Positions 43,095 to 56,843 of a stretch of 64,000 nucleotides of DNA are shown here, piece by piece. The notes under the pieces were generated by a model. That model did no database searches, was not told the origin of the DNA, and worked only from the letters and a program-made list of their open reading frames with translations. A program made the position numbers and the translations under genes. The number at the start of each line of letters is the position of its first letter. Position 1 is the first letter of the stretch. This DNA comes from Polyangiales bacterium. Its GTDB lineage: Bacteria; Myxococcota_A; Polyangia; Polyangiales; Ga0077539. The DNA is taken from assembly GCA_044229975.1 (NCBI GenBank), contig JBGARZ010000005.1:288001-352000 (forward strand), given 5' to 3'.

Positions 43095-43141
43095 GGCCGC
43101 GAATCTAACCCGCATCGGCCCGCGTGATACTCGTACCGCCG

Positions 43142-45712
43142 ATGAAACTCCGTCGCGCCCGTCCCCTCGCCGCGTCACTCGTCCTCCTCGCGTGCTCGTC
43201 CGACCCGACGCCGACGAACACCCCCGACGCGTCGACCGACGCCGCCACCGACCGGCCGCGCGCCGACGTCCCCGTGGTGACGCAGTGCACCCGCACCGCG
43301 CCACTGGAGCCCGATGCGACGTCGCCGACCGTGCGGCTCGGCGCGCCGGTGACCATCACCCGCGACGCGCTGGGCATCCCCCACATCGAGGGGCAGACCG
43401 ACGACGACGTGATGTACGCCGCGGGGTACGCGCAGGCCGTCGACCGGATGTTCCAGATGGAGCTGGTGCGGCGCACGGCGCGAGGCCGGGCCGCCGAGGT
43501 GTTGGGGCGGGACAAGCTCTCGCAGGACCAGCTCGTGCGGATGGTGGGCATCCCCCACTGGGGCCACCAGAGCGCGCTGCGCGTGGCGCAGGAGCACCCC
43601 GAGACGCACCGGCTCATCGCGGCCTGGGTGGCGGGCGTCAACCGCCGCGTCGACGAGATCAACGCCGGCACCGTGCCGAAGCCGCCCGGGTTTCGCGCGA
43701 CGGAGTTCGACTTCGCGCCCGCCCGCTGGACCACCGACGACCCCTACCTCATCGGCCGCCTCCAGCTCTTCCGCAACGCGAGCCAGATCGACTACGACGT
43801 GCTCTCCACCGTCGCCCGCCGGTACGTCCCGCGCGCCGCGGCGCTGCCGCTCATCAACTCGCTCGGGAGCGCGTTCATCGTCCCGCCCGAGGAGCGCCCC
43901 GCCCCCGCGGTGCGAGCCCAGCAGGCGCCCCGCGACACGGGCACCCGACTCGCCAACTTCCTCCAGCGCATGTCTCCGCTCTCGGGCGGAGCGAGCAACA
44001 ACTGGGCAATCGCGGGGCGTCACAGCGCCAATGGTCGGCCGTTGCTGGCGGGCGATCCGCACCAGCCGTTGCAGAGCCCGACGGTGTTCTGGGCGCACCA
44101 CATGCGCAGCGCCGCGAGCGGTGGGCTCGACGTGGTGGGCTTCGCCTTCGCGGGCGCGCCCTTCGTCAACCTCGGGCACAACCGCCACGTCGCGTGGACG
44201 GCCACCACCGCGTACCCCGACACCATGGACCTCTTCGAGGTCATCGCCGGGAGCAACACCATCACCCTCGGCGGCGACTCGTACTCCGTGGTGCCGTGCC
44301 GCGAGCGCATCGCCGTCCGCGGCGGTGAGATGGTCGACCAGGTGGTCGAGGAGGTTCCGGGCCTCGGGGTGCTGCTGCCCGACGACCTCGCCCCGCTGCC
44401 CATCACCGAGAAGAACAACCGGGTGCTCTTCCGCTGGGCCGGCGAGCGCGCGACCGAGGAGGCCGACGTCTTCCTCGCCTTCAACCGCGCGACCGACGTG
44501 GCGGCCTTCGACGCGGCGGTGCGGCGCATGGAGATCGGCGCCTTCAACTTCATCTCGGCCGACGCACGGGACATCAGCTACCGCTCGCGGGTGCTCATCC
44601 CCGACCGCGGCGACACCCGCACCTTGGGCGCGCCGTACTCGGTGCTCGACGGCGCCAACCTCCGCAACCTGTGGACGGGCGACTTCCTGAGCGACGACCA
44701 GCAGCCGCACTCGCGCGGCGGAACGCGCGGCTTCCTCTGCTCGGCCAACAACGACCCCTTCGGGTTTACGAGCAACGGGCGCCTCGACGACGACCCCTGG
44801 TACTACGGCGTGTGGTTCGACCCGGGGCCCCGCGCGGCGCGCATCGAGTCCGAGCTCACGCGGCTCACGGCGGCGGGCAACGTCACCCGCGTCGACATGC
44901 AGCGGCTCCAGCTCGACACGTACAACCGCCTCGCCGACGACATGCTCCCGTCGCTCGCCGAGGCCGTCGCGCACATCCCCACCGACCCGGCACTCGCGAT
45001 GTACGTCGGTGACGCGCGCCTCGCCTCCCTCGCCGCGCAGCTCGCCGCGTGGGACCACCGCATGGACCGCGCGGCCTCGGCCCCGGTGGTGTTCGAGGCC
45101 TTCGAACATTTCTATGCGCGGCAGGTGCTGGCCGACGACCTCGACGTGATGTTCGACCCGCTCATCGCCAACGCGCCGGTGTACGTGATGAAGCTGCTCG
45201 CGCTGGTCATCAACGGCCGCTCGCCGATGGCCGCCCAGTACCTCCAGGGGGGACGCGACGTGCTGGCGTTGCGGGCGCTGGCGCAGACCCGCGACTGGCT
45301 CACGACGCGCTTCGGCGGGGTCGAGGCGACGCGTTACACCTGGGGGCAGTTCCACACGTCGCGGCCGACGACGCTGTTCACGCCGGAGGGACCGTTTGCG
45401 GTGGCGGCGGCGCCGGTCGACGGGTCGTTTGCGACGGTCAACGTCTCCGAAGGGGAGTTCTTCAACGGGACGACGGTGCGCGAGACGATGGAGTCGCACC
45501 ACGCGCCGGGCTACCGGATGGTCATCGGCTTCAACGACGACGGGACACCCGCGGCGACGGTGAACTTCCCGCGCGGCAACTCCGGCGACCCGATGTCCCG
45601 CTTCTACGCCAACACCCAGGCCGACTGGGACAGCGGCACCTACCAGCCGGTGCCCTACGAGCGCGCGTCCATCGACGCCGCCATGCAGGAGCGCACGACG
45701 CTCATGCCGTAG
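43142..45712 (+). CDS. Penicillin acylase family (Ntn hydrolase, S45) lipoprotein
   Basis: Lipobox LLAC, RDALGIPHI, GYAQAVDRMFQM, nucleophile SNNW, GDPH, GHN, SANN, GNSGDP. Confidence 0.93.
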   Translation: MKLRRARPLAASLVLLACSSDPTPTNTPDASTDAATDRPRADVPVVTQCTRTAPLEPDATSPTVRLGAPVTITRDALGIPHIEGQTDDDVMYAAGYAQAVDRMFQMELVRRTARGRAAEVLGRDKLSQDQLVRMVGIPHWGHQSALRVAQEHPETHRLIAAWVAGVNRRVDEINAGTVPKPPGFRATEFDFAPARWTTDDPYLIGRLQLFRNASQIDYDVLSTVARRYVPRAAALPLINSLGSAFIVPPEERPAPAVRAQQAPRDTGTRLANFLQRMSPLSGGASNNWAIAGRHSANGRPLLAGDPHQPLQSPTVFWAHHMRSAASGGLDVVGFAFAGAPFVNLGHNRHVAWTATTAYPDTMDLFEVIAGSNTITLGGDSYSVVPCRERIAVRGGEMVDQVVEEVPGLGVLLPDDLAPLPITEKNNRVLFRWAGERATEEADVFLAFNRATDVAAFDAAVRRMEIGAFNFISADARDISYRSRVLIPDRGDTRTLGAPYSVLDGANLRNLWTGDFLSDDQQPHSRGGTRGFLCSANNDPFGFTSNGRLDDDPWYYGVWFDPGPRAARIESELTRLTAAGNVTRVDMQRLQLDTYNRLADDMLPSLAEAVAHIPTDPALAMYVGDARLASLAAQLAAWDHRMDRAASAPVVFEAFEHFYARQVLADDLDVMFDPLIANAPVYVMKLLALVINGRSPMAAQYLQGGRDVLALRALAQTRDWLTTRFGGVEATRYTWGQFHTSRPTTLFTPEGPFAVAAAPVDGSFATVNVSEGEFFNGTTVRETMESHHAPGYRMVIGFNDDGTPAATVNFPRGNSGDPMSRFYANTQADWDSGTYQPVPYERASIDAAMQERTTLMP

Positions 45713-45801: not shown

Positions 45802-48800
45802 ATGGCAGGCTCTGACGCGGCTCTCTATGCGCCCAGGCTCCAGGTCGAACGCATGCTGCGGCGTCACGCTGCGGGCGGTGCGGCGACCGAGCCCGACATC
45901 GTCCACGGTGCCTTCCTCCTCATCGACGTGGTGGGCTTCTCGCGCGTGGCGGCCGAGCTGTCCGCCCGCGGAGCCCTCGGCGCCGAGGAGCTCTCGCGGT
46001 TGGTGATCCCGCTCTTCGCGACGGTGACCGACGCGGCGGTGGGCATGGGCGGCGACATCCTCTACTTCGCGGGCGACGCGGTGGGCGTGGCCTTCCCGCG
46101 CGCCGACGGCGAGGCCGAGCATCAGCCCGTCCTCCGCGCGTGTCAGGCGGCGCTCGACGCGCTGGCCGAGACCAGCGCCCTCGTGGCCGAGCGCGGCGAG
46201 AAGATCCGCGTGCGCGCGGCCATCGGCTGGGGCGAGTGCTCCGTCGTCGAGGCGGGCGGCTACCAGGGCCACTGGCAGACCTTCGTTCATGGCGATGGCA
46301 TCGAAGACCTCGCGCGCGCCGACCGCTCGGCCGCCGAAGGAACACTCACGCTCAGCGCCGACGCCTTCGCGGTGGCGCGCCAGCACCTCGACGCCACGAC
46401 CATCGCCGGTGGAGTCGTCCGCGTGAGCGCGCTTCGTCAGCGGGTCGTGCCGGCCGAGCGACGCGCGCTGGAGTGTCCCCCAGAGGTGCTGGAGACGCTG
46501 GCCGCGGTGATTCCGCCGTCGGTGCAGTACCGCCTCGCGAGCGGCGTGCGCAACCTCATCGCGGAGTTTCGTCCGGTGACGGCGGTGTTTGCGCGGATCC
46601 ACGGGCTCGACCTGCGCGCGGCCGACTCTCCCTTCCAGAACGCCGTCGCCGCCGTGCAGCGCGCCATCTCCGACGCGGGCGGCGTGGTGCACGCCGTCAT
46701 CGGCGACAAGGGGGTCGGGGTGCTGGGTGTCTTCGGCGTTCCGCCCTTGGCCCACGAGGACGACGCCGCGCGGGCGATGGACGCCTCCATCGAGATGCAG
46801 TCCCGGCTGCGCCGCCTCGGCGTCTCGGCCTCGGTCGGCGTCGCGAGCGGAACGGTCTTCTGCACCGAGCACGGCGCGAGCGAGCGCCGGGGCTTCGACG
46901 TCGTGGGCGCGACGCTGGTGCTCGCCGCGCGGCTCATGCAGCTCGCCGACGCGGGCACCACCCTCTGCGACGAGCAGACGCAGCGCCTCGCCGACCGCCA
47001 CGGCCACTCGTTCAACCCGCGCGCCGCGGCCCACCTCAAGGGCTTCGCCCAGCCGGTGCCCAGCTTCGTGGCGCTCGGTCGACAGTCCGAGCGACCGCGT
47101 CGGCAGAGCGCCTTCTTCGGTCGCGCCGACGACCTGCATCGCCTCGATCGGCAGCTCGTGGCGCTCGTCGGCGGCGCCTCGCCGGGCGTCACCTGGATCG
47201 AGGGCGAGGCCGGCATCGGCAAGAGCACGCTGGTGCAGGCGCTGGTGGACCTCGCCGCGACGCGCTCGGTCGCCCTCGTGATGGGCGGCGCCGACGCGGT
47301 CGAAGCGCAGACGCCGTACTACTCGCTGCGCGGCGTGGTGCGCAGCCTCGCGGGCGCCCCCATCGAGCTCGCGCCCGACGCGGCGCGCGAGAAGGTCGTG
47401 CGCTGGGTGCGCGAGACAACGCCCGAGCACGCGTGGCTCACGGGGCTGCTCGAAGGCATCGTCCCGCTCGACCTGCCGGTGAGCGACGAGCTCAAGACCA
47501 TGGACGCCGCGGCCCGCGTCGACCGCCTCGCCGAGCTCATGGCCGCGCTCGTCGCCGGGGAGAGCGAGCGCCGCCCATTGGTGATCGTGCTCGAAGACCT
47601 CCACTGGCTCGGCTCCGAGACCTGGAACGTCCTCCGCGCCATCGCCGAGCGCGCCCCGCGCGTGTGGCTGGTGGGCACCTTCCGCCCGCTCGATCAGGAG
47701 CCCGCCATGGTGACCGCCCACGGCGAGCGCGTGCGCCTCACCGGGCTCCAGCGCGAGGGCACCGCCGCCCTCGTGGCGCGCCGCCTCGGCGTCGGGACGG
47801 CGCCCGACGAGCTCGTCGAGTTCGTGCACGAGCGCTCCGAGGGCAACCCGTTGTTCATCGAGGAGATCGTGAGCTCGCTCGTCGAGGCCGACGCCGTGCA
47901 CGTGCGTGACGGCGCGGTGGTCTCCGACGGCAACGTGAGCGCGGTTCCGCTGCCCACGACCATTACGGGCGTGGTGACCGCGCGCCTCGACCGCCTCGCG
48001 CTCCAGGTGCTCACCATCGCCAAGGTCGCCTCGGTCATCGGGCGCTCGTTTGCGCGCGACCTGCTCGCCGCCATCCTGCCCGACGACGAGCTCGCGCCGC
48101 AGCTCGGCGCCTCGCTCGACACCCTGGTCGCGCAGCGCTTCATCCAGCTCGAACCCGGCCTCGCCGACGTCTGGGTCTTCCGCCACGCGCTCATTCAAGA
48201 AGCCAGCTACGCGCTGCTCCCCTTCGCGCAGCGCCGCCCCCTGCACCGCGCCGCCGCCGCGCACATCGAGCGCGACCACGGGGCCGACCCCGCGTACGCC
48301 GGTCGGCTCGCGCACCACTACACCGAGGCCGACGAGGCCGACGCCGCGAGCCGCTACTGCGCCGTCGCCGGTCGCCTCGCCCTCGACGCGTACGCCCACA
48401 CCGCCACCATCGCCCTGCTCGAACGCGCGATGACCTTCGACATCCGCGTGCGCGGCGAGCTGGCGCTCGACAACCGCCGCGCCGCGTGGTGCCGGCAGAT
48501 CGCCGAGGCCCACCAGTACCAGCTCCACCACCAGGAGGCGCTCGACTGGTACGCCCGCGCCTGGACCCTCGCCGGGTGGAGCGCCCCGCGCGCCGGCCTG
48601 CGCACCCTCGCCGAGCTCTGGACCAACCTCTCGCGCCGCTGGTGGCCACCTAGACCGACCCGCGACCCCGCGCTCCTCGCGCGGTGTGAGCAGGTGCTCG
48701 CGAGCGCCGCGGACATGTGCTCGATCCTCATCTTCGCGGGGCAGACGACCAACTACCTCCACGCGGCCCTCGCGTCGGACAACGTCGGCCGCCTCGTCGA

Positions 48801-49836
48801 GCGCGGGCGCTTCGTGGCCGAGACGCGGGCGTCCATCGGATTCCTGCTCGTGGCGCTGAAGCTGCCGCGCGCGGGCATGGCCGACCTCGACACCGCCTGC
48901 GCCCTCGCCGAGAGCGCGACCGACGGCCACACCGCGGCGCCCTTCACCATCCGCGGTATGGCCCTGGTGGTGCTCGGCCGCGTCGAGGAGTCCCTCCCCT
49001 CGCACCGCCGCGCCATGGAGATCGCCGAGCGCTTCTCGGCGGGCCTCTGGCGCCACCGCACGCTCTTCATGTGCGCCGAGGCGACGCTCATGCTCGGCCG
49101 CTACGAGGAGACCGTCGCGCTCATGTCGCGCTGCGTTCCCATCGCGCGCCTCGCCGAGCCGTCGAGCGCGGGCCACGCCACGGCCATCATCGCCCTCTGC
49201 AAGCTGCGCACAGGAACCGCCGCCGCCGAGGTCATCGCCGACCTCGACGGGCCGCTCGGCGTCGCGATCACCGCGGGCGACAAGGCACTCCACAGATTCT
49301 CGGCGAAGGCCCTGCTCGCCTGGGCGTGCTGGGGCGACGGCAAGACCGACCGGGCCCTCGTCCTCGCGCGCGAGTCCATCGAGCTCGCGGCGGGCGGCGG
49401 CATGGAGTGCTTCTCGTACCTGCGCGCCATCGACGGGCACCTGCACCTCGTGCTGCTCTGCCTCGACGCCGTCGCGCGCGCCTCTGACGCCAACCGCGCC
49501 GAGCGCGAAGCCCTCCTCGGCCGCGCGCTCGGTCACGTCCGCAAGCAGGCCAGGCTGCACCCGGTGCTCGCGGCGCACCGCGACCTCTGCGACGGCCTCG
49601 ACGCCGCGCGGCGCGGCGACACCACGCGCGCCCGCACGAGGTTCGCCCGCTCCATCGAGGCGGCCCGCACGATGTCGTTGCCCTGGGAGGAGGCGCAGGC
49701 CGCCCTCGGGCTCGCCCGACTCTCCACCGGCGCCGAGCGCGACACGCTGCTGCGACGCGCCGAGGCCATCGCCACCGACACCCACGACGCGCTCATCGCG
49801 CGCGACGTCACCCAAGCGACTCCACGCGAGGACTGA
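45802..49836 (+). CDS. Soluble adenylyl cyclase-like protein: two class III cyclase domains, STAND/AAA ATPase and TPR-like helical region
   Basis: C1 IDVVGFS and FAGDA; C2 DKG, FGVPP..HEDD..RA, LAARLM; Walker A GEAGIGKS, Walker B VLEDLHW, GNPLFIEE, FRHALIQE; AGGAGG RBS. Confidence 0.92.
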   Translation: MAGSDAALYAPRLQVERMLRRHAAGGAATEPDIVHGAFLLIDVVGFSRVAAELSARGALGAEELSRLVIPLFATVTDAAVGMGGDILYFAGDAVGVAFPRADGEAEHQPVLRACQAALDALAETSALVAERGEKIRVRAAIGWGECSVVEAGGYQGHWQTFVHGDGIEDLARADRSAAEGTLTLSADAFAVARQHLDATTIAGGVVRVSALRQRVVPAERRALECPPEVLETLAAVIPPSVQYRLASGVRNLIAEFRPVTAVFARIHGLDLRAADSPFQNAVAAVQRAISDAGGVVHAVIGDKGVGVLGVFGVPPLAHEDDAARAMDASIEMQSRLRRLGVSASVGVASGTVFCTEHGASERRGFDVVGATLVLAARLMQLADAGTTLCDEQTQRLADRHGHSFNPRAAAHLKGFAQPVPSFVALGRQSERPRRQSAFFGRADDLHRLDRQLVALVGGASPGVTWIEGEAGIGKSTLVQALVDLAATRSVALVMGGADAVEAQTPYYSLRGVVRSLAGAPIELAPDAAREKVVRWVRETTPEHAWLTGLLEGIVPLDLPVSDELKTMDAAARVDRLAELMAALVAGESERRPLVIVLEDLHWLGSETWNVLRAIAERAPRVWLVGTFRPLDQEPAMVTAHGERVRLTGLQREGTAALVARRLGVGTAPDELVEFVHERSEGNPLFIEEIVSSLVEADAVHVRDGAVVSDGNVSAVPLPTTITGVVTARLDRLALQVLTIAKVASVIGRSFARDLLAAILPDDELAPQLGASLDTLVAQRFIQLEPGLADVWVFRHALIQEASYALLPFAQRRPLHRAAAAHIERDHGADPAYAGRLAHHYTEADEADAASRYCAVAGRLALDAYAHTATIALLERAMTFDIRVRGELALDNRRAAWCRQIAEAHQYQLHHQEALDWYARAWTLAGWSAPRAGLRTLAELWTNLSRRWWPPRPTRDPALLARCEQVLASAADMCSILIFAGQTTNYLHAALASDNVGRLVERGRFVAETRASIGFLLVALKLPRAGMADLDTACALAESATDGHTAAPFTIRGMALVVLGRVEESLPSHRRAMEIAERFSAGLWRHRTLFMCAEATLMLGRYEETVALMSRCVPIARLAEPSSAGHATAIIALCKLRTGTAAAEVIADLDGPLGVAITAGDKALHRFSAKALLAWACWGDGKTDRALVLARESIELAAGGGMECFSYLRAIDGHLHLVLLCLDAVARASDANRAEREALLGRALGHVRKQARLHPVLAAHRDLCDGLDAARRGDTTRARTRFARSIEAARTMSLPWEEAQAALGLARLSTGAERDTLLRRAEAIATDTHDALIARDVTQATPRED

Positions 49837-49843
49837 AGCTCAC

Positions 49844-52800
49844 ATGACCGACGCACGGCACCGGGTTCTCATCGTAGGCGGCGGCCCGTCCGCCCTCAGC
49901 ACGGCGTGGGCGCTCACCGCGACCGCGGATCTGCGCGCACGGTACGACGTGACGGTGCTCCAGATGGGGTGGCGCCTCGGCGGCAAGGGGGCCAGCGGGC
50001 GCGACCTCGATCGCCACGCGCGCATCGAGGAGCACGGGCTCCACATCATGTTCGGCTTCTACGACAACTTCTTCCGGGTGATGAAGGAGACCTACGCCGA
50101 GCTCGGTCGCTCGCCCGATGCGCCGCTCGCCACCTTCGCCGACGCCTTCAACCCCGCCGAGAGCGGAACGCTCGAGTGGTACTACGACGACGTCTGGCGC
50201 CCGATCACCATCGGGCTGCCGCGCAACGAGGCCGAGCCTGGCACCGGGACGGTCTACGACAGCAGCGGCACGTACCTCTGGACGCTGGTCGCGGGCGCCA
50301 TCGGAGCGACGCTCGGCGCGCCCACCCTCGAACGCCTCCAGCACCTCATCTTCCCCTTCGGCAAGGCGTGGGACCGCGACCCTGGTGGCTCCGTCGCCGC
50401 GGGCCTGAGCGACCCGCTGGTCACCCTCTTCGTCGACCTGCTCAAGGCCCTGCTCGACGCTGCGTCCGCCGTCGACCGGGCCGCGCACGAGCTCGCGCCG
50501 GGGCTCATGGCCCTGCTCTCCAAGGCCGAGCGCGCCATCACGACGCTCGTCGAGCACGTCGTCGGGGGCGACTCCACCGCGGCGCTGGCGCTGTCGTTTC
50601 TCGACTTCGGGCAGGCGCTCCTGCGGGGCATCCTCGCCGACCGCGTGCTCGACCCCGGCGGCTTCGAGCGCATCGACAACGAAGACTGGGCCGACTGGCT
50701 GGTGCGCCACGGAATGCTCGACGAGCACCGCGACTGCCCCGGGGTGAAATTCGTGTACGACGCGGCGTTTTCGTACCCGCACGGCGGCAACAAGCCGCGC
50801 ATGGCCGCCGGCACCGCGATGCGCCTCCTCCTGCGCGTCGGCGGAACCTACAAGGGCGCCGCCTACTACAAGATGCAGGGAGCGATGGGCGACGTCATCA
50901 TCGCGCCGCTCTACCAGGTGCTGGCCGAGCGCGGCGTGACGTTTCGCTTCTTCCAGCAGGTGACGGCGGTCGAGGCCGAGGGCGACCGCCTCGCGCGGGT
51001 GCGCATCCAACCGCAGGCGGTGGTGTCCGCGGGAGCCGATCGCTACGACCCGCTGGTCACGGTGAAGGGCGTCCCGAGCTGGCCCAACCGCCCACAGTGG
51101 GACCAGCTCACCGGCTATCCCGCCGCGTGGCGCGATGACCCCTCGCACTTCGAGTCCTACTACGCCGACACGCCGATGCTCCCGGAGACGGTGCTCACCC
51201 AGGGCGTCGACTTCGACACCTGCGTGCTCGCGACGCCCATCCAGTGCCTGCCCTTCCTCGCGCCCGCCCTGTGCGCGCGACCGAAGTGGAACGCCATGGT
51301 GACCTCCATCCAGGCCGTGCAGACCGTCGCGGTGCAGCTCTGGTTCAAGAAGACGACGCACCAGCTCGGGTGGAAGGGTGAGGCGCCGCTCTTGAGCGAC
51401 TTCTCCGATCCGCTCAACACCTGGTGCGACATGACCCAGACGCTGGTGCGCGAGGAGTGGCCGACGGGGTCCGCCCCGACGAGCGTGCAGTACTTCACCG
51501 GGCAGCAGCCGGGGCCGACGGTGTGCCCGCCGCGCTCCGACCGCACCTTCCCCGCGCGCATGAAGGCCGAGGCGCTCGACGAGGTCGCCCGCTTCATGGA
51601 CTCGCAGCTCACCATCCTCCTGCCCGGCGCGGGGTCGCCCGTCGCGCCGCACGCGGTCGACGGCGCGCTGGTGGTCGACCGCTACGTGCGCAGCAACTGC
51701 GAGCCCTCCGAGCGCTGCACGCTCTCGCTCCCCGGCAGCAACCGCCACCGCATGCGCGCCGACGGGTCGGGCATCGAGCACCTGCGCCTCGCGGGCGACT
51801 GGCTCGACAACGGCCTCTACGCCGCGTGCCTCGAAGGCGCCATCATGGGCGGGCTCCTCTGCGCCAACACCTTCGACGGGGTGAAGCAACCGCTGGTGGG
51901 CGCGCGCTTCGACGACGGCGACATCGACCCCGCGCACGGGACGCGCCCGCCCGTCACGCCCGAGCGCCCCGCGGCGCCGCCGTGGGTGGCGCGCTACCGA
52001 CCCAGCAAGAAGGTGAAGGTCGCGGTGCTCGGCAGCGGGGTCGGCGCGATGACCGCGGTGTGGGGTCTCCTGCAATCGCCCTTCGCCGAGCGCTTCGAGA
52101 TCACCGTGTACCAGTACGGCTGGCGGCTCGGCGGCAAGTGCGCGAGCGGCCGGAAGATGGACGCCCACGCCCGCATCCAGGAGCACGGCCTGCACGTCTG
52201 GACCGGCATGTACGACAACGCCTTCCGCATGATGAAGACGGTGTACGCCGACCTCGCGCGGCCGCACGACGTGCCGCTCTCCACCTGGTACGACCCGAGC
52301 GACAAGAAGCGCAGCGCGTTCTGGCCGCACAGCGCCATCTCGCTCGGCGAGGTGAGCGGCGCGCACCCGGGGCTGTGGCAGATCGAGGCGCCGATCAACC
52401 GCGACACGCCCGGCAACGGCAAGCTGCTCGACTCACCGGGCGCCTACCTCATCGAGCTCGTCGAGATGGTGGAGGAGATGCTCTTCGGGGCGGACTTCCT
52501 CGCGCGGCAGCAGCACGAGGGCGGCGACGGCGCGCGGGGATTGCTCAGCTCGCTCGTGGGCGCGGTGGACTCCCTCGTGAAGGACAAGGACCCGGCGAAG
52601 GCCGCGTTTCGATTGCGTGTCGGGAGCCACTGGGCGCGCGATCTCTCGGCGCACATCCGCCGGGCCGAAGGGCTGGTGGACGGCGCCGTCGAAGACGCCA
52701 TCGAGCTCGCGCAGAAGCTGGTGCGCGCCTTCGAGCGGGAGTTCGTGGCGATCGACGCGGGCGACCTCGACGCGCGCCATGCGTTCGAGCTCATCGAGTT

Positions 52801-54235
52801 CGCGATGGCGATGGCGATCGGGGTGCTGCGCGACGGGGTGCTGCACCGGGGCTTCGACGTGGTGGATGGGGTCGAGTTCACCGAGTGGATGCGGCGCCAC
52901 GGGGCGTCGAGGGTCGCGCTCGATGGGGCGCTCGTGCGCGGCTGGCACGCCTTCGCCTTCGCCGCCATGCACGGCGAGATCGAACACTGGAGCATGAGCG
53001 CGGCGACGGCGCTGCGAACGCTCTTCCGCTGCGTGGCGACCTTCAAGGGAGCGTTCTTCTGGATGATGCAGGCGGGGATGGGCGACACCATCTTCACGCC
53101 GCTCTACGAGTGGATGACGAAGCGGGGAGTGCGCTTCGAGTTCTTCCATCGGGTCGAGGAGATCGACTGCTCGCTCCACGGCGTGACGACGCCGCTGGTG
53201 CAGCGCGTGCGGGTGGCGCGGCAGGTCGACCTGGCGCCGGGCGTGGAGAAGTACGACCCGCTGGTGCCGGTGAAGGGCGTCTCGTGCTGGCCCGCCGATC
53301 CGCGCTGGGAGCAGCTCGACCCGGCGCAGGTGGCGAAGCTGCGCGGCGACGGCACGAAGCCAGCCATCAACCTGGAGTCGTACTACGCCGACTGGGAGCC
53401 GGTGGCGCGGCGCGACCTGCTGCTCGGCGAGCACTTCGACCTCGTCATCGCGGGGCTCTCCGTCGAGCCCATGCGAACGCTCGCCCCGACGCTGCTCCAG
53501 CACTGCACGCGGCTCAAGACGGCGGTCGACGCCGCGCGCACCAACCAGACCATCGCGGCGCAGCTCTGGCTCGACGTCACGCCCGCATCGATGGGCTGCA
53601 AGACCCCTCCCTCCATCGGCGCGGGCTTCGCCGAGCCGCACAACACCTTCGCCGACCTCAGCCACCTGCTGCCGCGCGAGGACTGGAGCGCCGACGACGC
53701 GCCGAAGACCATCGTGTACCTGTGCGGGGTGTTCGGCGACGAGGTCACTCCGCTGCCGCCTCCGTCCGACCACGATTTTGCGCGGCGCAGTCAGCTCCGC
53801 GTCGAGGCGATGACCGAGTCGTGGCTGCTCTCCTCGTGGGGTCAGCTCTACCCGGCGGCGACCATCCCCGGCACCGACGGCATCCGCTGGGCGCGCCTGC
53901 ACGCCCCGGCCGGGCTCAGCGGGTCACAGCGTCTGCGGGCGCAGTTCGTCCGCGGCAACATCGACCCGAGCGAGCGCTACGTGCTGTCGCCGCCCGGGAC
54001 GGCCGCGACGCGCATCCGCGCCGACGAGGCGGGCTTCGACAACCTCGTGGTGGCGGGCGACTGGCTCTACACGGGGCTCAACGTCGGGTGCGTCGAGGCC
54101 GCCGTGATGGGCGGACTCCAGGCGTCGCGCGCGCTGTCTGGCTATCCCGCGGTGATCGTCGGCGATACGGGGTGGTGGTTCGGTCGGCCGGACGAGGCGA
54201 CGGCCGTGAGCGGGGCTACGATGACAGCGCGTTGA
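49844..54235 (+). CDS. Tandem double FAD/NAD(P)-binding oxidoreductase (two complete amine-oxidase/desaturase-fold units in one chain)
   Basis: Twice: GxG dinucleotide start, Q.GWRLGGK.ASGR, EHGLH..G.YDN.F, MQ..MGD.I..PLY, AGDW...GL...C.E.A.MGGL; second unit starts near 52007. Confidence 0.88.
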   Translation: MTDARHRVLIVGGGPSALSTAWALTATADLRARYDVTVLQMGWRLGGKGASGRDLDRHARIEEHGLHIMFGFYDNFFRVMKETYAELGRSPDAPLATFADAFNPAESGTLEWYYDDVWRPITIGLPRNEAEPGTGTVYDSSGTYLWTLVAGAIGATLGAPTLERLQHLIFPFGKAWDRDPGGSVAAGLSDPLVTLFVDLLKALLDAASAVDRAAHELAPGLMALLSKAERAITTLVEHVVGGDSTAALALSFLDFGQALLRGILADRVLDPGGFERIDNEDWADWLVRHGMLDEHRDCPGVKFVYDAAFSYPHGGNKPRMAAGTAMRLLLRVGGTYKGAAYYKMQGAMGDVIIAPLYQVLAERGVTFRFFQQVTAVEAEGDRLARVRIQPQAVVSAGADRYDPLVTVKGVPSWPNRPQWDQLTGYPAAWRDDPSHFESYYADTPMLPETVLTQGVDFDTCVLATPIQCLPFLAPALCARPKWNAMVTSIQAVQTVAVQLWFKKTTHQLGWKGEAPLLSDFSDPLNTWCDMTQTLVREEWPTGSAPTSVQYFTGQQPGPTVCPPRSDRTFPARMKAEALDEVARFMDSQLTILLPGAGSPVAPHAVDGALVVDRYVRSNCEPSERCTLSLPGSNRHRMRADGSGIEHLRLAGDWLDNGLYAACLEGAIMGGLLCANTFDGVKQPLVGARFDDGDIDPAHGTRPPVTPERPAAPPWVARYRPSKKVKVAVLGSGVGAMTAVWGLLQSPFAERFEITVYQYGWRLGGKCASGRKMDAHARIQEHGLHVWTGMYDNAFRMMKTVYADLARPHDVPLSTWYDPSDKKRSAFWPHSAISLGEVSGAHPGLWQIEAPINRDTPGNGKLLDSPGAYLIELVEMVEEMLFGADFLARQQHEGGDGARGLLSSLVGAVDSLVKDKDPAKAAFRLRVGSHWARDLSAHIRRAEGLVDGAVEDAIELAQKLVRAFEREFVAIDAGDLDARHAFELIEFAMAMAIGVLRDGVLHRGFDVVDGVEFTEWMRRHGASRVALDGALVRGWHAFAFAAMHGEIEHWSMSAATALRTLFRCVATFKGAFFWMMQAGMGDTIFTPLYEWMTKRGVRFEFFHRVEEIDCSLHGVTTPLVQRVRVARQVDLAPGVEKYDPLVPVKGVSCWPADPRWEQLDPAQVAKLRGDGTKPAINLESYYADWEPVARRDLLLGEHFDLVIAGLSVEPMRTLAPTLLQHCTRLKTAVDAARTNQTIAAQLWLDVTPASMGCKTPPSIGAGFAEPHNTFADLSHLLPREDWSADDAPKTIVYLCGVFGDEVTPLPPPSDHDFARRSQLRVEAMTESWLLSSWGQLYPAATIPGTDGIRWARLHAPAGLSGSQRLRAQFVRGNIDPSERYVLSPPGTAATRIRADEAGFDNLVVAGDWLYTGLNVGCVEAAVMGGLQASRALSGYPAVIVGDTGWWFGRPDEATAVSGATMTAR

Positions 54236-56378
54236 GGGTGGCGCTGGCGGCGCTGCGGCCCGAGTCGACGGCGCCTTCGAGGCTGCCTGTGAGCAGGCGG
54301 GTGTACGTCCAGTCGCCCGCGACGACGAGGTTGGGGTAGCCCGTCTCGGCGGCGTGCAGGCGGTACTGCGCGGTGCCCGGCAGGATGGCCGTGTAGAGCT
54401 GGTCGGGACCGCTGTTGGGGCGCACCTGCACGGCGCACACGTGCAGGCTCGACAGGCTGTACGGCTGGAGGGGCGCGGCGGCGCCGGGCCAGAGCGTCCC
54501 GATGGCGAAGCGGGCCCAGTTGCCGGCGTCGAAGAGGGCGCGCTGGTGCTGCATGGCGAGCGCGGAGACACCCGCCAGGCGGACGGACTCGGGGTCGGCG
54601 GCGGGGTCGGCGGCGAGGATGCCGGGCGCGCCGAGGGGCCCGAGGAGGTGCGAGATGGCCTTGCAGTGGCCGTCCCAGTTCTCGGAGCCGAGCACCGGGC
54701 TGGGGTCTTCCCAGGTCGCGTACGGGAGAATGTACGACGAGAGGATGGGCGCCCCGCGGTGCCACCCGACGGTGGGCAGCTCACAGCGAAACCAGATGCG
54801 CAGCGACTGGGTCTCGATGCCGCCGACGTTGAGCACGGCCTCGCGCCAGCGAGCGTTGGCGGCGAGCAGCGACGGCGCGGAGAGCGGGTACATCGCGTGG
54901 CGCAGGGTCGTGACGAGCACGTCGAAGTCGACGCCGTCCTGGAGCACGACGTCGGGGCCCTTGCGCGGATACCAGGCGTTGTCCATGGCGGGCTGCACCT
55001 CGGGGGGCGGGCGCTGCGCGACCTCGAAGGGCTGCGGAATCGGGCACTCCGAACCGTCGGTCAGGACGGGCTGGAAGAGGCCCTGCCACATGCCGGGCGC
55101 GTGCGGCCCGGGCACTGGCGCGAGCTGCTCCCACAGCGGGTCGTCGGGCCACACGGCGCGGCCGGGGATGATGCCCTTGATGAAGGGGTCGTAGGCGAAG
55201 GTGCCGGCGGTGACGTCGGCCTGGCGTTCGAGCACGACGCGGGCGATGCGGCCGTCGTCGCCGGGGACGATGTCCCACACCCGGTGGAAGTACGCGAAGC
55301 GCACGCCGCGGTACTGGAGCGCGGCGACGATGGGCCCGATGAAGGAGTCGCCGATCTCGCTCCTGAACTGGTACGCGACCGAGCCGCGGTAGTTGAAGAG
55401 CAGCTCCAGCATGCAGACGAGGGAGGCGCCCGCGGCGGCGGAGGGCGCGTTGGCCGAGCCCCCGGCGAAGGCGGCGATGGCGGCGTACCAGACCTGCGTC
55501 GCGGCCGAGTCGACGGCGAAGGCTTCACCGCCGTGGAGGCGCAGCCACTGGCGGAAGTCGTAGGCGTCCATCTTCGCGAGCCCGGCGGGCGTGTACGCCG
55601 CGTCTTCGAGGGCGCCGATGAAGATGGTGAGCCCGAGCTCGGTGAGGATGAGCGCGCGGAGGATGTCCACGTCGAGGTCGGACAGCGGGCCGAGCACGTC
55701 GCGGGCGATGCCGCGCACCAGCTTCGCCACGTCGACCATGGCGCCCCACTCCATCGGGGTGATGCTCCCGAGGACGAACTTCTCGGCCTGCCCGATGGCG
55801 TCGCGCGCGAGGCGCTCGAAGGGGTCGGTGATGAGCGAGCTGATCTTCCCGAGGAGGTCGCTCAGCACGCCCCGCTCGGAGCTGGCCGCCGCGGCGCCGC
55901 GGCGCATGTGGCCGACGAGGTCGGGCTGGAGCACGCGTTCGAGCGAGGCGCCGAGCAGGCGCGCGAGGCCGTGGTGCATCGACCAGGGGCTGTGCTCCTC
56001 GGGGAGCTTCGGGAGGGTGATGGCCCAGTCGGTCCACCCGCACTGGTAGAGCTGCTTGAGCACCACGAGGTCGCGGGCGACGAGCTCGTCGGGGCCGTGG
56101 CCGAAGCGGGTGTCATTGTGCTCGGCGAGCACCGCGTAGGCGTCGGCCATGAGCGCGAGCGACTGGTGGTAACACCCGAACATGTAGTGGGTGCCGTTCT
56201 GGTTGATCCACTGCTCGGGGCCCACGCGGCCGCTGGCGCAGAGCCCGCCGGCGCGCCACCCCATCTGGTAGACGGTGACCTCCACCGACGCCTGGTGGGC
56301 GGGATCAGACAGGTGCCACGCGGTGGCGAGGCCCGACGGCCCTGCCCCGAGAATCACGACGCGACGACGTTCACCCAT
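54216..56378 (-). CDS. FAD/NAD(P)-binding oxidoreductase, divergent paralog of the tandem protein
   Basis: ILGAGPSG, QMGWRAGGLCASGR, NQNGTHYMFG, IGDSFIGP, RGVRFAYFHRV, AGDW, SLEGAV.SG. Confidence 0.88.
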   Translation of the reverse strand: MGERRRVVILGAGPSGLATAWHLSDPAHQASVEVTVYQMGWRAGGLCASGRVGPEQWINQNGTHYMFGCYHQSLALMADAYAVLAEHNDTRFGHGPDELVARDLVVLKQLYQCGWTDWAITLPKLPEEHSPWSMHHGLARLLGASLERVLQPDLVGHMRRGAAAASSERGVLSDLLGKISSLITDPFERLARDAIGQAEKFVLGSITPMEWGAMVDVAKLVRGIARDVLGPLSDLDVDILRALILTELGLTIFIGALEDAAYTPAGLAKMDAYDFRQWLRLHGGEAFAVDSAATQVWYAAIAAFAGGSANAPSAAAGASLVCMLELLFNYRGSVAYQFRSEIGDSFIGPIVAALQYRGVRFAYFHRVWDIVPGDDGRIARVVLERQADVTAGTFAYDPFIKGIIPGRAVWPDDPLWEQLAPVPGPHAPGMWQGLFQPVLTDGSECPIPQPFEVAQRPPPEVQPAMDNAWYPRKGPDVVLQDGVDFDVLVTTLRHAMYPLSAPSLLAANARWREAVLNVGGIETQSLRIWFRCELPTVGWHRGAPILSSYILPYATWEDPSPVLGSENWDGHCKAISHLLGPLGAPGILAADPAADPESVRLAGVSALAMQHQRALFDAGNWARFAIGTLWPGAAAPLQPYSLSSLHVCAVQVRPNSGPDQLYTAILPGTAQYRLHAAETGYPNLVVAGDWTYTRLLTGSLEGAVDSGRSAASATLNALSS

Positions 56379-56435: not shown

Positions 56436-56843
56436 TCACCCCTGGCTGACGCGGCCATCACCGCCGATGAGGATGCGCGGGCCCAGGTGGCCGGGCCGCG
56501 GCGACGCGACGGTCTCGACGGCGGCCTTCACCCTCGCGCCGACCTCGCGCACGTTGGAGCGCACGAGGCTGGCGATGGTGTACGGGCGGCGATCGGCGAC
56601 CACCCCTTCGACGTCGAGCCCGAGCGCGTCGGCGACGAAGAGCGAGCGCGTGAGGTGGAAGCGCTGGGTCACCACCACGGCGCGGCGCACCCCGGAGACG
56701 TCGCGGGCGCGGTAGAGCGTGTCGTAGGTGGTGAAGCCCGCCTGGTCCATGAAGACGTGCGCGGCGGGGACGCCCCCGGCTTCGAGGTAGCGGCGCATGG
56801 CGTTGACCTCGTCGTACTCGGTCGTGCCGTGATCGCCCGACAC
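56436..56843 (-). pseudogene. sanA: 5'-truncated SanA/YdcF (DUF218) family gene
   Basis: Begins at the mid-protein motif SGDHG..YDE..AM, then D.AGF.TYD, VVTQRFHL.R, RE..AR; in-frame stop about 40 nt upstream; no TM anchor or first motif. Confidence 0.7.

Follow-up and report, generated by a model that had tools for sequence, protein, structure and literature searches.

A cyclase-STAND sensor gene and phytoene desaturase-like flavoprotein genes form a conserved, co-inherited module in a Polyangiales bacterium and other genomes

The 64,000-nucleotide stretch of Polyangiales bacterium contig JBGARZ010000005.1 analysed here (positions 288,001 to 352,000, hereafter the window) carries a gene for a cyclase-STAND sensor protein beside genes for three homologous flavoprotein units. 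This layout is a conserved, co-inherited module and not a chance neighbourhood: the cyclase-STAND gene, unit 1 and unit 3 were found in at least five gene orders at 14 loci, which come from six GTDB families and a metagenome contig. These results describe an undescribed, co-evolving sensor-enzyme module with a candidate pocket and an altered cyclase. Its parts are of known kinds, and its chemistry we infer. The features of the locus are, in window coordinates:

45802..49836, plus strand, cyclase-STAND sensor gene; its 1344-aa product has a C1-C2 pair of class III cyclase domains, a STAND NOD and a sensor of TPR/SUPR type
45811..46470, plus strand, cyclase domain C1, by match to soluble adenylyl cyclase (sAC)
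46483..47088, plus strand, cyclase domain C2, by match to sAC
47095..48290, plus strand, STAND NOD module (AAA_16, E 2e-19)
48292..49833, plus strand, helical-repeat sensor of TPR/SUPR type, predicted from the model
49042..49080, plus strand, module-specific motif G1081-L-W-R-H-R-T-L-F-M-C-A-E1093, a candidate ligand site
49844..54235, plus strand, two-unit flavoprotein gene, 1463 aa
49844..51913, plus strand, flavoprotein unit 1, the N-terminal half of that protein; part of the module core
51989..54235, plus strand, flavoprotein unit 2, the C-terminal half, which follows a Pro-rich linker; accessory to the module
54216..56378, minus strand, flavoprotein unit 3, 720 aa, convergent

The cyclase-STAND gene ends in TGA at 49834-49836, 7 nt before the ATG at 49844 of the gene for the 1463-aa protein, and the 3' ends of the latter and the 720-aa gene share 20 nt (54216-54235). 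An earlier note, made from the sequence alone, had given the same coordinates, lengths, gap and overlap. It had also read a cyclase pair, a STAND ATPase and helical repeats in the 1344-aa protein, and all were seen here through a match to human sAC (4clf), the AAA_16 match, a weak TPR_12 match and a structural model. Since the unit-3 gene lies on the opposite strand, it cannot share a transcript with the other two genes. The G+C and third-position G+C (GC3) contents of the locus are those of the genome, and a sigma-70 promoter and terminator scan of the locus returned nothing above chance. Sequencing runs listed for the stretch included none of RNA, and four DNA runs yielded short pieces that nowhere spanned the module.

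A search of 41 relatives recovered all four components in G020, G019 and G021, arranged in two orders, and a metagenome scan with the flavoprotein alignment alone recovered L073, where the three units are separate genes around the cyclase. With unit 3 as the query, matches were found in 10 of 401 genomes from the order and in 6 of 401 from the phylum; the window's own genome is counted in both. Seven of the 11 new genomes from these searches carried the module (G073, G091, G097, G120, G187, G560 and, in broken form, G708); the others (G309, G487, G540 and G693) carried other subfamilies, three with a STAND match and G309 with a TPR tail at the contig end. G283 was found by a cyclase search and G831 by a sensor search. 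Unit 2 was present at 5 of the 14 module loci, and the following layouts were seen:

Cyclase then fused units 1 and 2, unit 3 convergent: the window's genome (G000) and G020
Fused units 1 and 2 then cyclase, unit 3 convergent: G019, and G021 (unit 1 frameshifted, unit 2 separate)
Units 2 and 3 convergent, then cyclase followed by unit 1: L073
Cyclase then unit 1, unit 3 convergent: G091, G097 and G708; with unit 3 on another contig, G073 and G120
Unit 1 divergent from cyclase, cyclase followed by unit 3: G187, G560, G283 and G831 (unit 1 of G831 cut by the contig start)

Flanking genes differed between genomes and were mostly metabolic or housekeeping. Trees of the STAND, unit 1 and unit 3 agreed in their supported splits, placing (G000, G020) with the four f22 genomes, then (G019, G021), with the basal loci unresolved. 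Units 1 and 3 co-diverge with the STAND, in line with the coupling proposed earlier. The order of splits in the three trees departs from the family assignment. In approximately unbiased (AU) tests, monophyly of the four family-f1 genomes was rejected for unit 1 alone (p 0.015; p 0.069 for unit 3 and 0.077 for the STAND), and block transfer of the module between lineages is suggested.

The earlier note had staked its idea on enrichment of such flavoproteins next to cyclase-STAND genes. Of 77 metagenome loci chosen by their flavoprotein only, 31 had an AAA_16-type STAND within 5 kb, compared to 2.9% of 20,000 random intervals of the window's genome (a one-genome control); the 77 loci came from the best 80 of 498 confirmed and are not independent. 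Among loci with at least 3 kb on both sides, 12 of 19 had a STAND. The lack of enrichment that would have refuted the earlier idea was not seen. In the GTDB-wide set picked on the dual cyclase, 1 of 80 loci had the enzyme (that of G020), many of these loci having short flanks. Within the window's order, 18 of the 45 dual-cyclase matches examined were enzyme-linked (51 rows, with 6 near-copies left out), by a profile drawn mostly from linked sequences. The STAND-enzyme link is one-sided: the enzymes lie near STANDs, while sAC-like STANDs mostly lack the enzymes, and a general link of sAC-like STANDs to flavoenzymes was not borne out.

The NOD retains intact Walker A (GEAGIGKS, 47203-47226) and Walker B (LEDLHW) motifs, and K474 and D599 were kept in 13 of 13 module members. 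An AlphaFold model of residues 431-1344 (pLDDT 93) showed a NOD, a winged helix and an all-helical solenoid. The modelled NOD best matched the NOD of MalT (8bob, Z 23.8, root-mean-square deviation (rmsd) 4.3, 371 aligned) and also matched PH0952 and Apaf-1. The modelled sensor best matched MalT domain III (1hz4, Z 25.3, rmsd 4.0, 328 aligned), nearly tied with APPBP2 (Z 24.6, within 1 Z); Rap and NprR, peptide-binding TPRs like APPBP2, were among the other close folds. Foldseek ranked the archaeal STAND-TPR protein 6mfv first and Avs3 second. The likeness to E. coli MalT thus covers both the NOD and the SUPR/TPR sensor and extends to a STAND tied to enzymes, MalT's own ties to MalY, Aes and MalK being by ligand and direct binding. 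Unlike MalT, which has a C-terminal DNA-binding domain, the module has an N-terminal cyclase pair as its output, and its partners are phytoene desaturase (PDS)-like flavoproteins.

In a FastTree phylogeny of the sensors of 106 dual-cyclase STANDs, the 12 module members formed a clade (support 100, stem 0.61) with no unlinked member. G283 joined this clade by sensor and by cyclase, and its NOD fell elsewhere with weak support. Module sensors were 27-31% identical to the window's, compared to 15-23% for most others at similar NOD identity, and module loci scored at least 560 bits on the sensor profile against at most 224 for the rest, a separation that is partly circular. A sensor search of 401 genomes of the class gave a single new high scorer, G831 (414 bits, motif present), and a blind prediction was upheld: unit-1- and unit-3-type genes flank its sensor gene. 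None of the 9 next-ranked sensors fetched had these types; 8 had no family gene, and the remaining one had a gene of another subfamily together with an ADC-like gene.

Of about 20 conserved columns that are specific to the module, eleven fall within residues 1081-1130. The motif has the general form GLWxHRxxFxxxE, then EP (E1119-P), and Asp1028 and His1213, also module-specific, lie elsewhere in the sensor. GLWxHR was present in 12 of 12 module sensors and absent from 94 other sensors. Residues 1082-1097 form one helix in the predicted structure; this helix may line the repeat groove and bind a ligand, and its polar and aromatic patch (W, H, R, F, E) would argue for an amphipathic rather than a purely lipophilic one. 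Among 1.84 billion representatives, about 49 clusters (fragments included) scored above 239 bits on the sensor profile, and the H-R and E-P core was found in 13 of 14 short cluster members aligned, the exception scoring 205 bits. Two of the clusters sit on contigs whose lengths (77971 and 779915) equal those of contigs that carry family flavoproteins, at most a hint of a link. In one of 11 scanned (P0281), a Ser/Thr kinase replaces the cyclases ahead of a module-type sensor. A 4581-aa protein, P0320, has four sensor-like stretches.

Two stretches of the 1344-aa protein matched C1 and C2 of human sAC (4clf, E 5e-21). The tandem C1-C2, STAND and TPR order is that of sAC (ADCY10) and its bacterial relatives, as the earlier note had it; the likeness does not reach the adenine and bicarbonate residues, which are missing in the module. 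By the residue roles in Table 1 of PMC12867704, C1 retains the metal residues Asp42 and Asp92 (sAC Asp47 and Asp99) and Arg138 (sAC Lys144), and C2 retains Arg377 (sAC Arg416); the metal Asp pair, the alpha-phosphate Arg and the pyrophosphate-binding basic residue are kept by module cyclases as in sAC. The bicarbonate residues of C1 are replaced, with Tyr88 at Lys95 and Ala171 at Arg176, and C2 has Ala298 at Lys334, Asp366 at Thr405 and Val373 at Asn412. Across the module, the Asp47, Asp99 and Arg416 equivalents and an Arg at the Lys144 position were invariant in 12 of 12 cyclases where visible, and Lys95 and Arg176 were absent from all 12 members where visible. Lys334 and Thr405, the latter of which we take to have a role in adenine recognition, were found in none of 13.

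These residues suggest that metal-triphosphate handling is under selection and that base recognition is unlike that of sAC. With the metal and phosphate residues kept and the adenine and bicarbonate residues lost, cAMP is doubtful as the output, and because the adenine-recognising Lys334 and both bicarbonate residues are gone, a cAMP assay alone could miss it. An active enzyme of uncertain base specificity is favoured over a nucleotide-binding scaffold. The label of pseudo-cyclase was set aside, as the catalytic Asp and Arg residues are invariant, and the window's Val at Asn412 is no proof of inactivity, because salmon sAC has Arg at that position (PMC12867704, Table 1). Lys334 was kept in 0 of 22 enzyme-linked and 31 of 60 unlinked cyclases, and Asn412 in 12 of 22 and 59 of 60, respectively. 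A tie between enzyme neighbourhood and loss of these residues was not significant on 5 independent pairs and was rejected; Lys334 is also missing in many unlinked myxobacterial relatives. Unlike the relatives of sAC, 79 of 80 of which lack the enzymes, the module has its own sensor clade and a fixed flavoenzyme partnership.

As had been claimed, the 1463-aa protein consists of two whole copies of one family: units 1 and 2 align over their whole length at 34.9% identity (E 6e-115). Unit 3, at 28% identity to either, is diverged as described, but the three are not recent duplicates, since in a tree of 164 units they fell in three separate clades, that is, three old subfamilies. They are the only full-length family members in the 10-Mb genome, and all have the GxGxxG, GWRxGG and C-terminal GDW...E...G motifs. 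In the unit-1 clade (support 99), 11 of the 11 sequences with context lie beside a dual-cyclase STAND. Unit 1 shows fixed changes at family-conserved columns (for example Cys for Tyr and Ala for Gly), and so does unit 3 (for example WINQNGTH in place of RIEEHGLH close to the flavin motif, as well as Glu for Gly, Arg for Gln and His for Tyr). Such fixed clade differences, while the flavin motifs persist, suggest specialisation and not decay.

The earlier note had guessed at the fold of amine oxidases or carotenoid/hopanoid desaturases, and the model of unit 2 (pLDDT 90) was indeed closest to rice PDS (5mog, Z 26.9, rmsd 3.0, 451 aligned; next 22.4), with 14% structural identity. The best NCBIfam models were HpnE (97.9 for both fused units together, and 65.2, against a cut-off of 283), ZDS (62.5 against 622) and PDS (42.4 against 569), all under cut-off. 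The oleate hydratase (MCRA) Pfam model scored 24.5 bits against a cut-off of 23, covering just 43 of 495 positions, and ranked lower in the feature search. No close relative of the flavoproteins emerged when solved structures were searched by sequence, and matches to LSD1 were set aside as FAD motif plus helices. The JGI name for the family is COG3349 type, and a passage of PMC4558948 equates COG3349 with PDS. Fold, flavin motifs and best NCBIfam matches are thus shared with PDS, ZDS and HpnE. Unlike these, the units measure about 700 rather than about 470 aa, score far under the cut-offs and are not accompanied in the module by a phytoene/squalene synthase or other crt/hpn gene. No carotenoid or hopanoid synthesis genes were found in the window or the module flanks; the two SQS_PSY genes of the genome lie on other contigs. 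Domain scans found no cyclic-nucleotide-binding domain in the flavoproteins or their conserved neighbours.

The flavoprotein family extends well beyond the module, with at least 2247 clusters at E 0.001 among 8000 candidates scored. Its partners include STAND-TPR, kinase-STAND-GAF and wHTH/TIR-TPR sensors, and the output domains comprise dual cyclase, single cyclase, kinase, and kinase plus histidine kinase. Seven further loci of the 77 had a wHTH- or TIR-TPR protein directly upstream. An ADC-like gene or domain was found at 23 of 77 loci and a polyprenyl synthetase at 15 of 77, by profiles built from those loci with Pfam as a check, and a CrtC/lipocalin fusion was also among the partners. Of 12 plasmid records matched (8 from Azospirillum), 5 were opened and 4 had a STAND beside the family gene. 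At L288 in Azospirillum brasilense Sp7 (NZ_CP033315.1, 360806-373521), two family paralogues lie with a FadL-type porin, an ADC-like gene and a gene for a 1919-aa kinase-STAND-GAF-PAS-histidine kinase. Mycobacterium sp. JS623 has a STAND, a family gene and a polyprenyl synthetase; Qingshengfaniella has a STAND and a family gene, with Crp beside the cyclase; Rufibacter has a STAND beside the family gene, and Catenovulum has only the ADC-like gene there. The partners in the wider family point to isoprenoid or lipid chemistry.

On this evidence we favour a MalT-like, ligand-gated STAND switch that senses a lipid- or isoprenoid-derived substrate or product of the enzymes and then turns on the cyclase pair, an explanation that we consider evenly poised between right and wrong. 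The TPR sensor would bind a small amphipathic molecule of this kind, made or converted by the neighbouring flavoenzymes, and the ligand-bound STAND would activate the N-terminal cyclases. Units 1 and 3 (and 2) may act in succession on one molecule, each catalysing a different FAD-dependent step (desaturation, isomerisation or hydration), and could either make or destroy the ligand. Since the module itself includes neither a synthase nor a transporter, the starting molecule would be supplied by housekeeping lipid or isoprenoid metabolism or from outside. The output would be a cyclic nucleotide that may be other than cAMP, and CRP-type proteins with genes elsewhere would read it. A diffusible molecule is the simplest account because the sensor tracks the enzyme subfamily and the family recruits many unrelated sensors and outputs. 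The earlier proposal of a probably lipophilic molecule holds in that lipid-type chemistry fits the PDS-like fold; the sensor patch argues for an amphipathic and not a purely lipophilic one.

PDS-type flavoproteins work at the membrane surface, where their substrates are long hydrophobic chains. As described in PMC5703498, the long hydrophobic cavity of PDS opens to the membrane, and intermediates are channelled from one subunit to another; such channelling may be a model for the unit 1-unit 2 fusion. Sections of PMC10427625 describe ligand binding by STANDs as leading to ADP/ATP exchange and oligomerisation, and MalT as having a sensor that binds a small molecule and as being repressed by direct binding of two enzymes.

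Several observations weigh against the ligand-gated switch. No polyprenyl synthetase, ADC-like gene or CRP lies near the window's module, so the proposed lipid or isoprenoid chemistry rests on the fold and on other subfamilies, and the oleate-hydratase (MCRA) and amine-oxidase families were also near in feature and fold searches. Asn412 is present in 5 of 13 module cyclases (the basal loci), and the window's cyclase, with no equivalents of Lys334, Thr405 and Asn412, may be inactive. In G073 and G120, unit 3 is not on the contig that carries the cyclase and unit 1. Any cassette that is passed on as a block would be expected to co-diverge, and a conserved TPR patch suits a protein partner as well as a small molecule.

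This last point leads to an alternative in which the flavoproteins are protein partners, unit 1 or 3 binding the sensor or NOD and holding it off or being guarded, such that the state of the enzyme would be sensed. MalT, the best structural match, is repressed in just this way by MalY and Aes, the other close sensor folds (Rap, NprR, APPBP2) bind peptides, and sensor and enzyme co-diverge tightly. However, the family pairs with very different sensors, which is more easily explained by a diffusible molecule than by one interface, and the flavin-binding motifs are kept in all three units. We regard direct partnership as unlikely.

It is quite unlikely that the STAND senses an unrelated cue and that a cyclic nucleotide (or an oligomer, if the cyclase is dead) turns on flavoenzymes that remodel membrane lipids or isoprenoids. 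This would suit the regulator-target layout of four loci (G187, G560, G283 and G831), where unit 1 is divergent from the cyclase, and the presence of Crp in some wider-family loci. It leaves unexplained why the sensor, more than the NOD, tracks the enzyme subfamily, and elsewhere the sensor lies in the same apparent operon as its supposed target.

A role in phage defence or other conflict, in which the TPR would detect a phage protein as in Avs, the cyclase would signal as in Pycsar and the flavoenzymes would act as effectors, appears very unlikely. Avs proteins carry nuclease, TIR, SIR2 or similar effectors. The module resembles them as a STAND-TPR protein with an N-terminal enzyme effector, and Avs3 was the second Foldseek match; unlike Avs, its effector is a cyclase pair, with no nuclease, TIR or membrane effector, and Avs models gave no PADLOC match at E 0.01. 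Pycsar systems place a PycC cyclase of non-adenine specificity beside an effector with a cyclic-nucleotide-binding domain. The module likewise has class III cyclases with base-recognition residues of non-adenine type, and PycC matches were obtained (E 1.6e-8), but these were weak and partial, and the module has no partner gene with such a domain, in its flavoproteins or otherwise, and no defence-island context. Its distribution is patchy and apparently mobile (unit 3 in 10 of 401 genomes of the order), as would suit a defence system, whereas its flanks are of housekeeping type and differ between genomes and its sensor motif is invariant rather than diversifying. PADLOC on 90 flanking proteins returned generic kinases, ABC ATPases, a radical SAM protein, a methyltransferase, one reverse transcriptase and two PDC candidates, and unit 1 had no match among 50,697 phage records. 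PADLOC models, flanking genes and phage records thus gave no support for phage defence.

Hitch-hiking, in which the genes travel together without functional coupling, is suggested by the 79 of 80 sAC-like STANDs without the enzymes and by unit 3 being unlinked in two genomes, but is hardly credible and already largely refuted, as the genes have stayed adjacent in at least five different orders, through fusion and fission, while diverging to about 35-45% identity and while every flank was replaced, and the link of the family to STANDs is seen in four other phyla-level contexts.

LuxI/LuxR and CqsA/CqsS are quorum-sensing pairs of synthase and receptor. Like them, the module keeps an enzyme gene beside a co-diverging sensor; unlike them, it shares no homologous parts, its receptor would be an NLR-like ATPase whose output is a cyclase, and signal synthesis is only a candidate function here. 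The ligand-gated switch could be extended to a first synthase-receptor pair on an NLR-like ATPase, with a diffusible signal made from a common isoprenoid or lipid, a GLWxHR pocket, a re-specified cyclase making a cyclic nucleotide other than cAMP, and a flavoprotein family that marks a widespread class of such signals. This extension is tentative and on the doubtful side.

Other observations were made at single loci. In the window, a penicillin amidase-family gene (43124-45712, plus strand) lies 89 nt upstream of the cyclase on the same strand and has a 73% identical paralogue on contig C17; it was rejected as a module member, a weak homologue being present, among the loci fetched, only at L084/L241 (one locus) and L117 and at no other module locus. 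A SanA/DUF218 gene (56436-56843, minus strand) matches model positions 87-216 only, has an in-frame stop just upstream and looks 5'-truncated. Elsewhere in the window's genome, contig C38 carries a shorter, distant HpnE/ZDS-like flavoprotein (504365-505939, minus strand), and contig C2 a polyprenyl synthetase (76066-76899, minus strand) that scores 319 bits on the family-linked synthetase profile, compared to about 100 for two others, and is a possible substrate supplier in trans.

Among the module loci, G708 (L237, 9169-13794) has a truncated unit 1 and a cyclase split over frames, the unit-1 frameshift of G021 (L033, about 8300) may be an assembly error, and in G073 the gene for a group II intron reverse transcriptase (L243, 1552-3471) lies about 3 kb away from that for unit 1. 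An apparent 2825-aa cyclase-enzyme fusion in G020 was discarded: it is an open frame upstream of the 1463-aa-type gene, and the cyclase is a separate open reading frame.

In the wider family, the flavoproteins of L096, L097, L100, L117, L120, L126 and L144 form one clade (support 100), whose members directly follow TPR proteins that are headed by wHTH or TIR and have no STAND domain. The related genomes of L043, L047, L048, L049 and L050 share a trio of an ADC-like gene, a flavoprotein and a 320-345-aa protein without a Pfam match, with a squalene/phytoene synthase near the trio at L047. An actinobacterial-type layout (L089, L099, L102, L105 and L289) combines a single cyclase-STAND, a flavoprotein, orphan proteins and a polyprenyl synthetase, at times also with Crp and an F420-dependent reductase. 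L151 (9899-21150), from a Chthoniobacter metagenome-assembled genome (MAG), has three tandem sAC-like cyclase-STAND genes, and L171, from an Anaerolineales MAG, has two.

Full-text literature searches found no title or abstract describing the module or a characterised family member, in agreement with the earlier note that no characterised system has this layout; the neighbourhood tables in supplements of STAND surveys may hold it. In the portion of a 2025 article available to us (PMC12802110), no regulator acting through the STAND region of sAC, or specific to full-length mammalian sAC, was found. Bacterial cyclase-STAND-TPR proteins are common, and the module offers, within 10.6 kb, a candidate source of ligand in its three enzymes, as well as an altered active site in its cyclase and, at residues 1081-1093 and 1119, a candidate pocket. 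The presence of the family beside STANDs in harmless cultured strains such as A. brasilense Sp7 provides a model for its chemistry. If the proposed switch is correct, the module would represent an undescribed way of making and sensing a small-molecule signal. On the more doubtful reading as a synthase-receptor pair, the enzyme family, wired in several phyla to kinase, histidine-kinase, cyclase, TIR and DNA-binding outputs, would mark an unrecognised class of bacterial lipid signals, and the module would give a first handle on the ligands of sAC-type STAND sensors.

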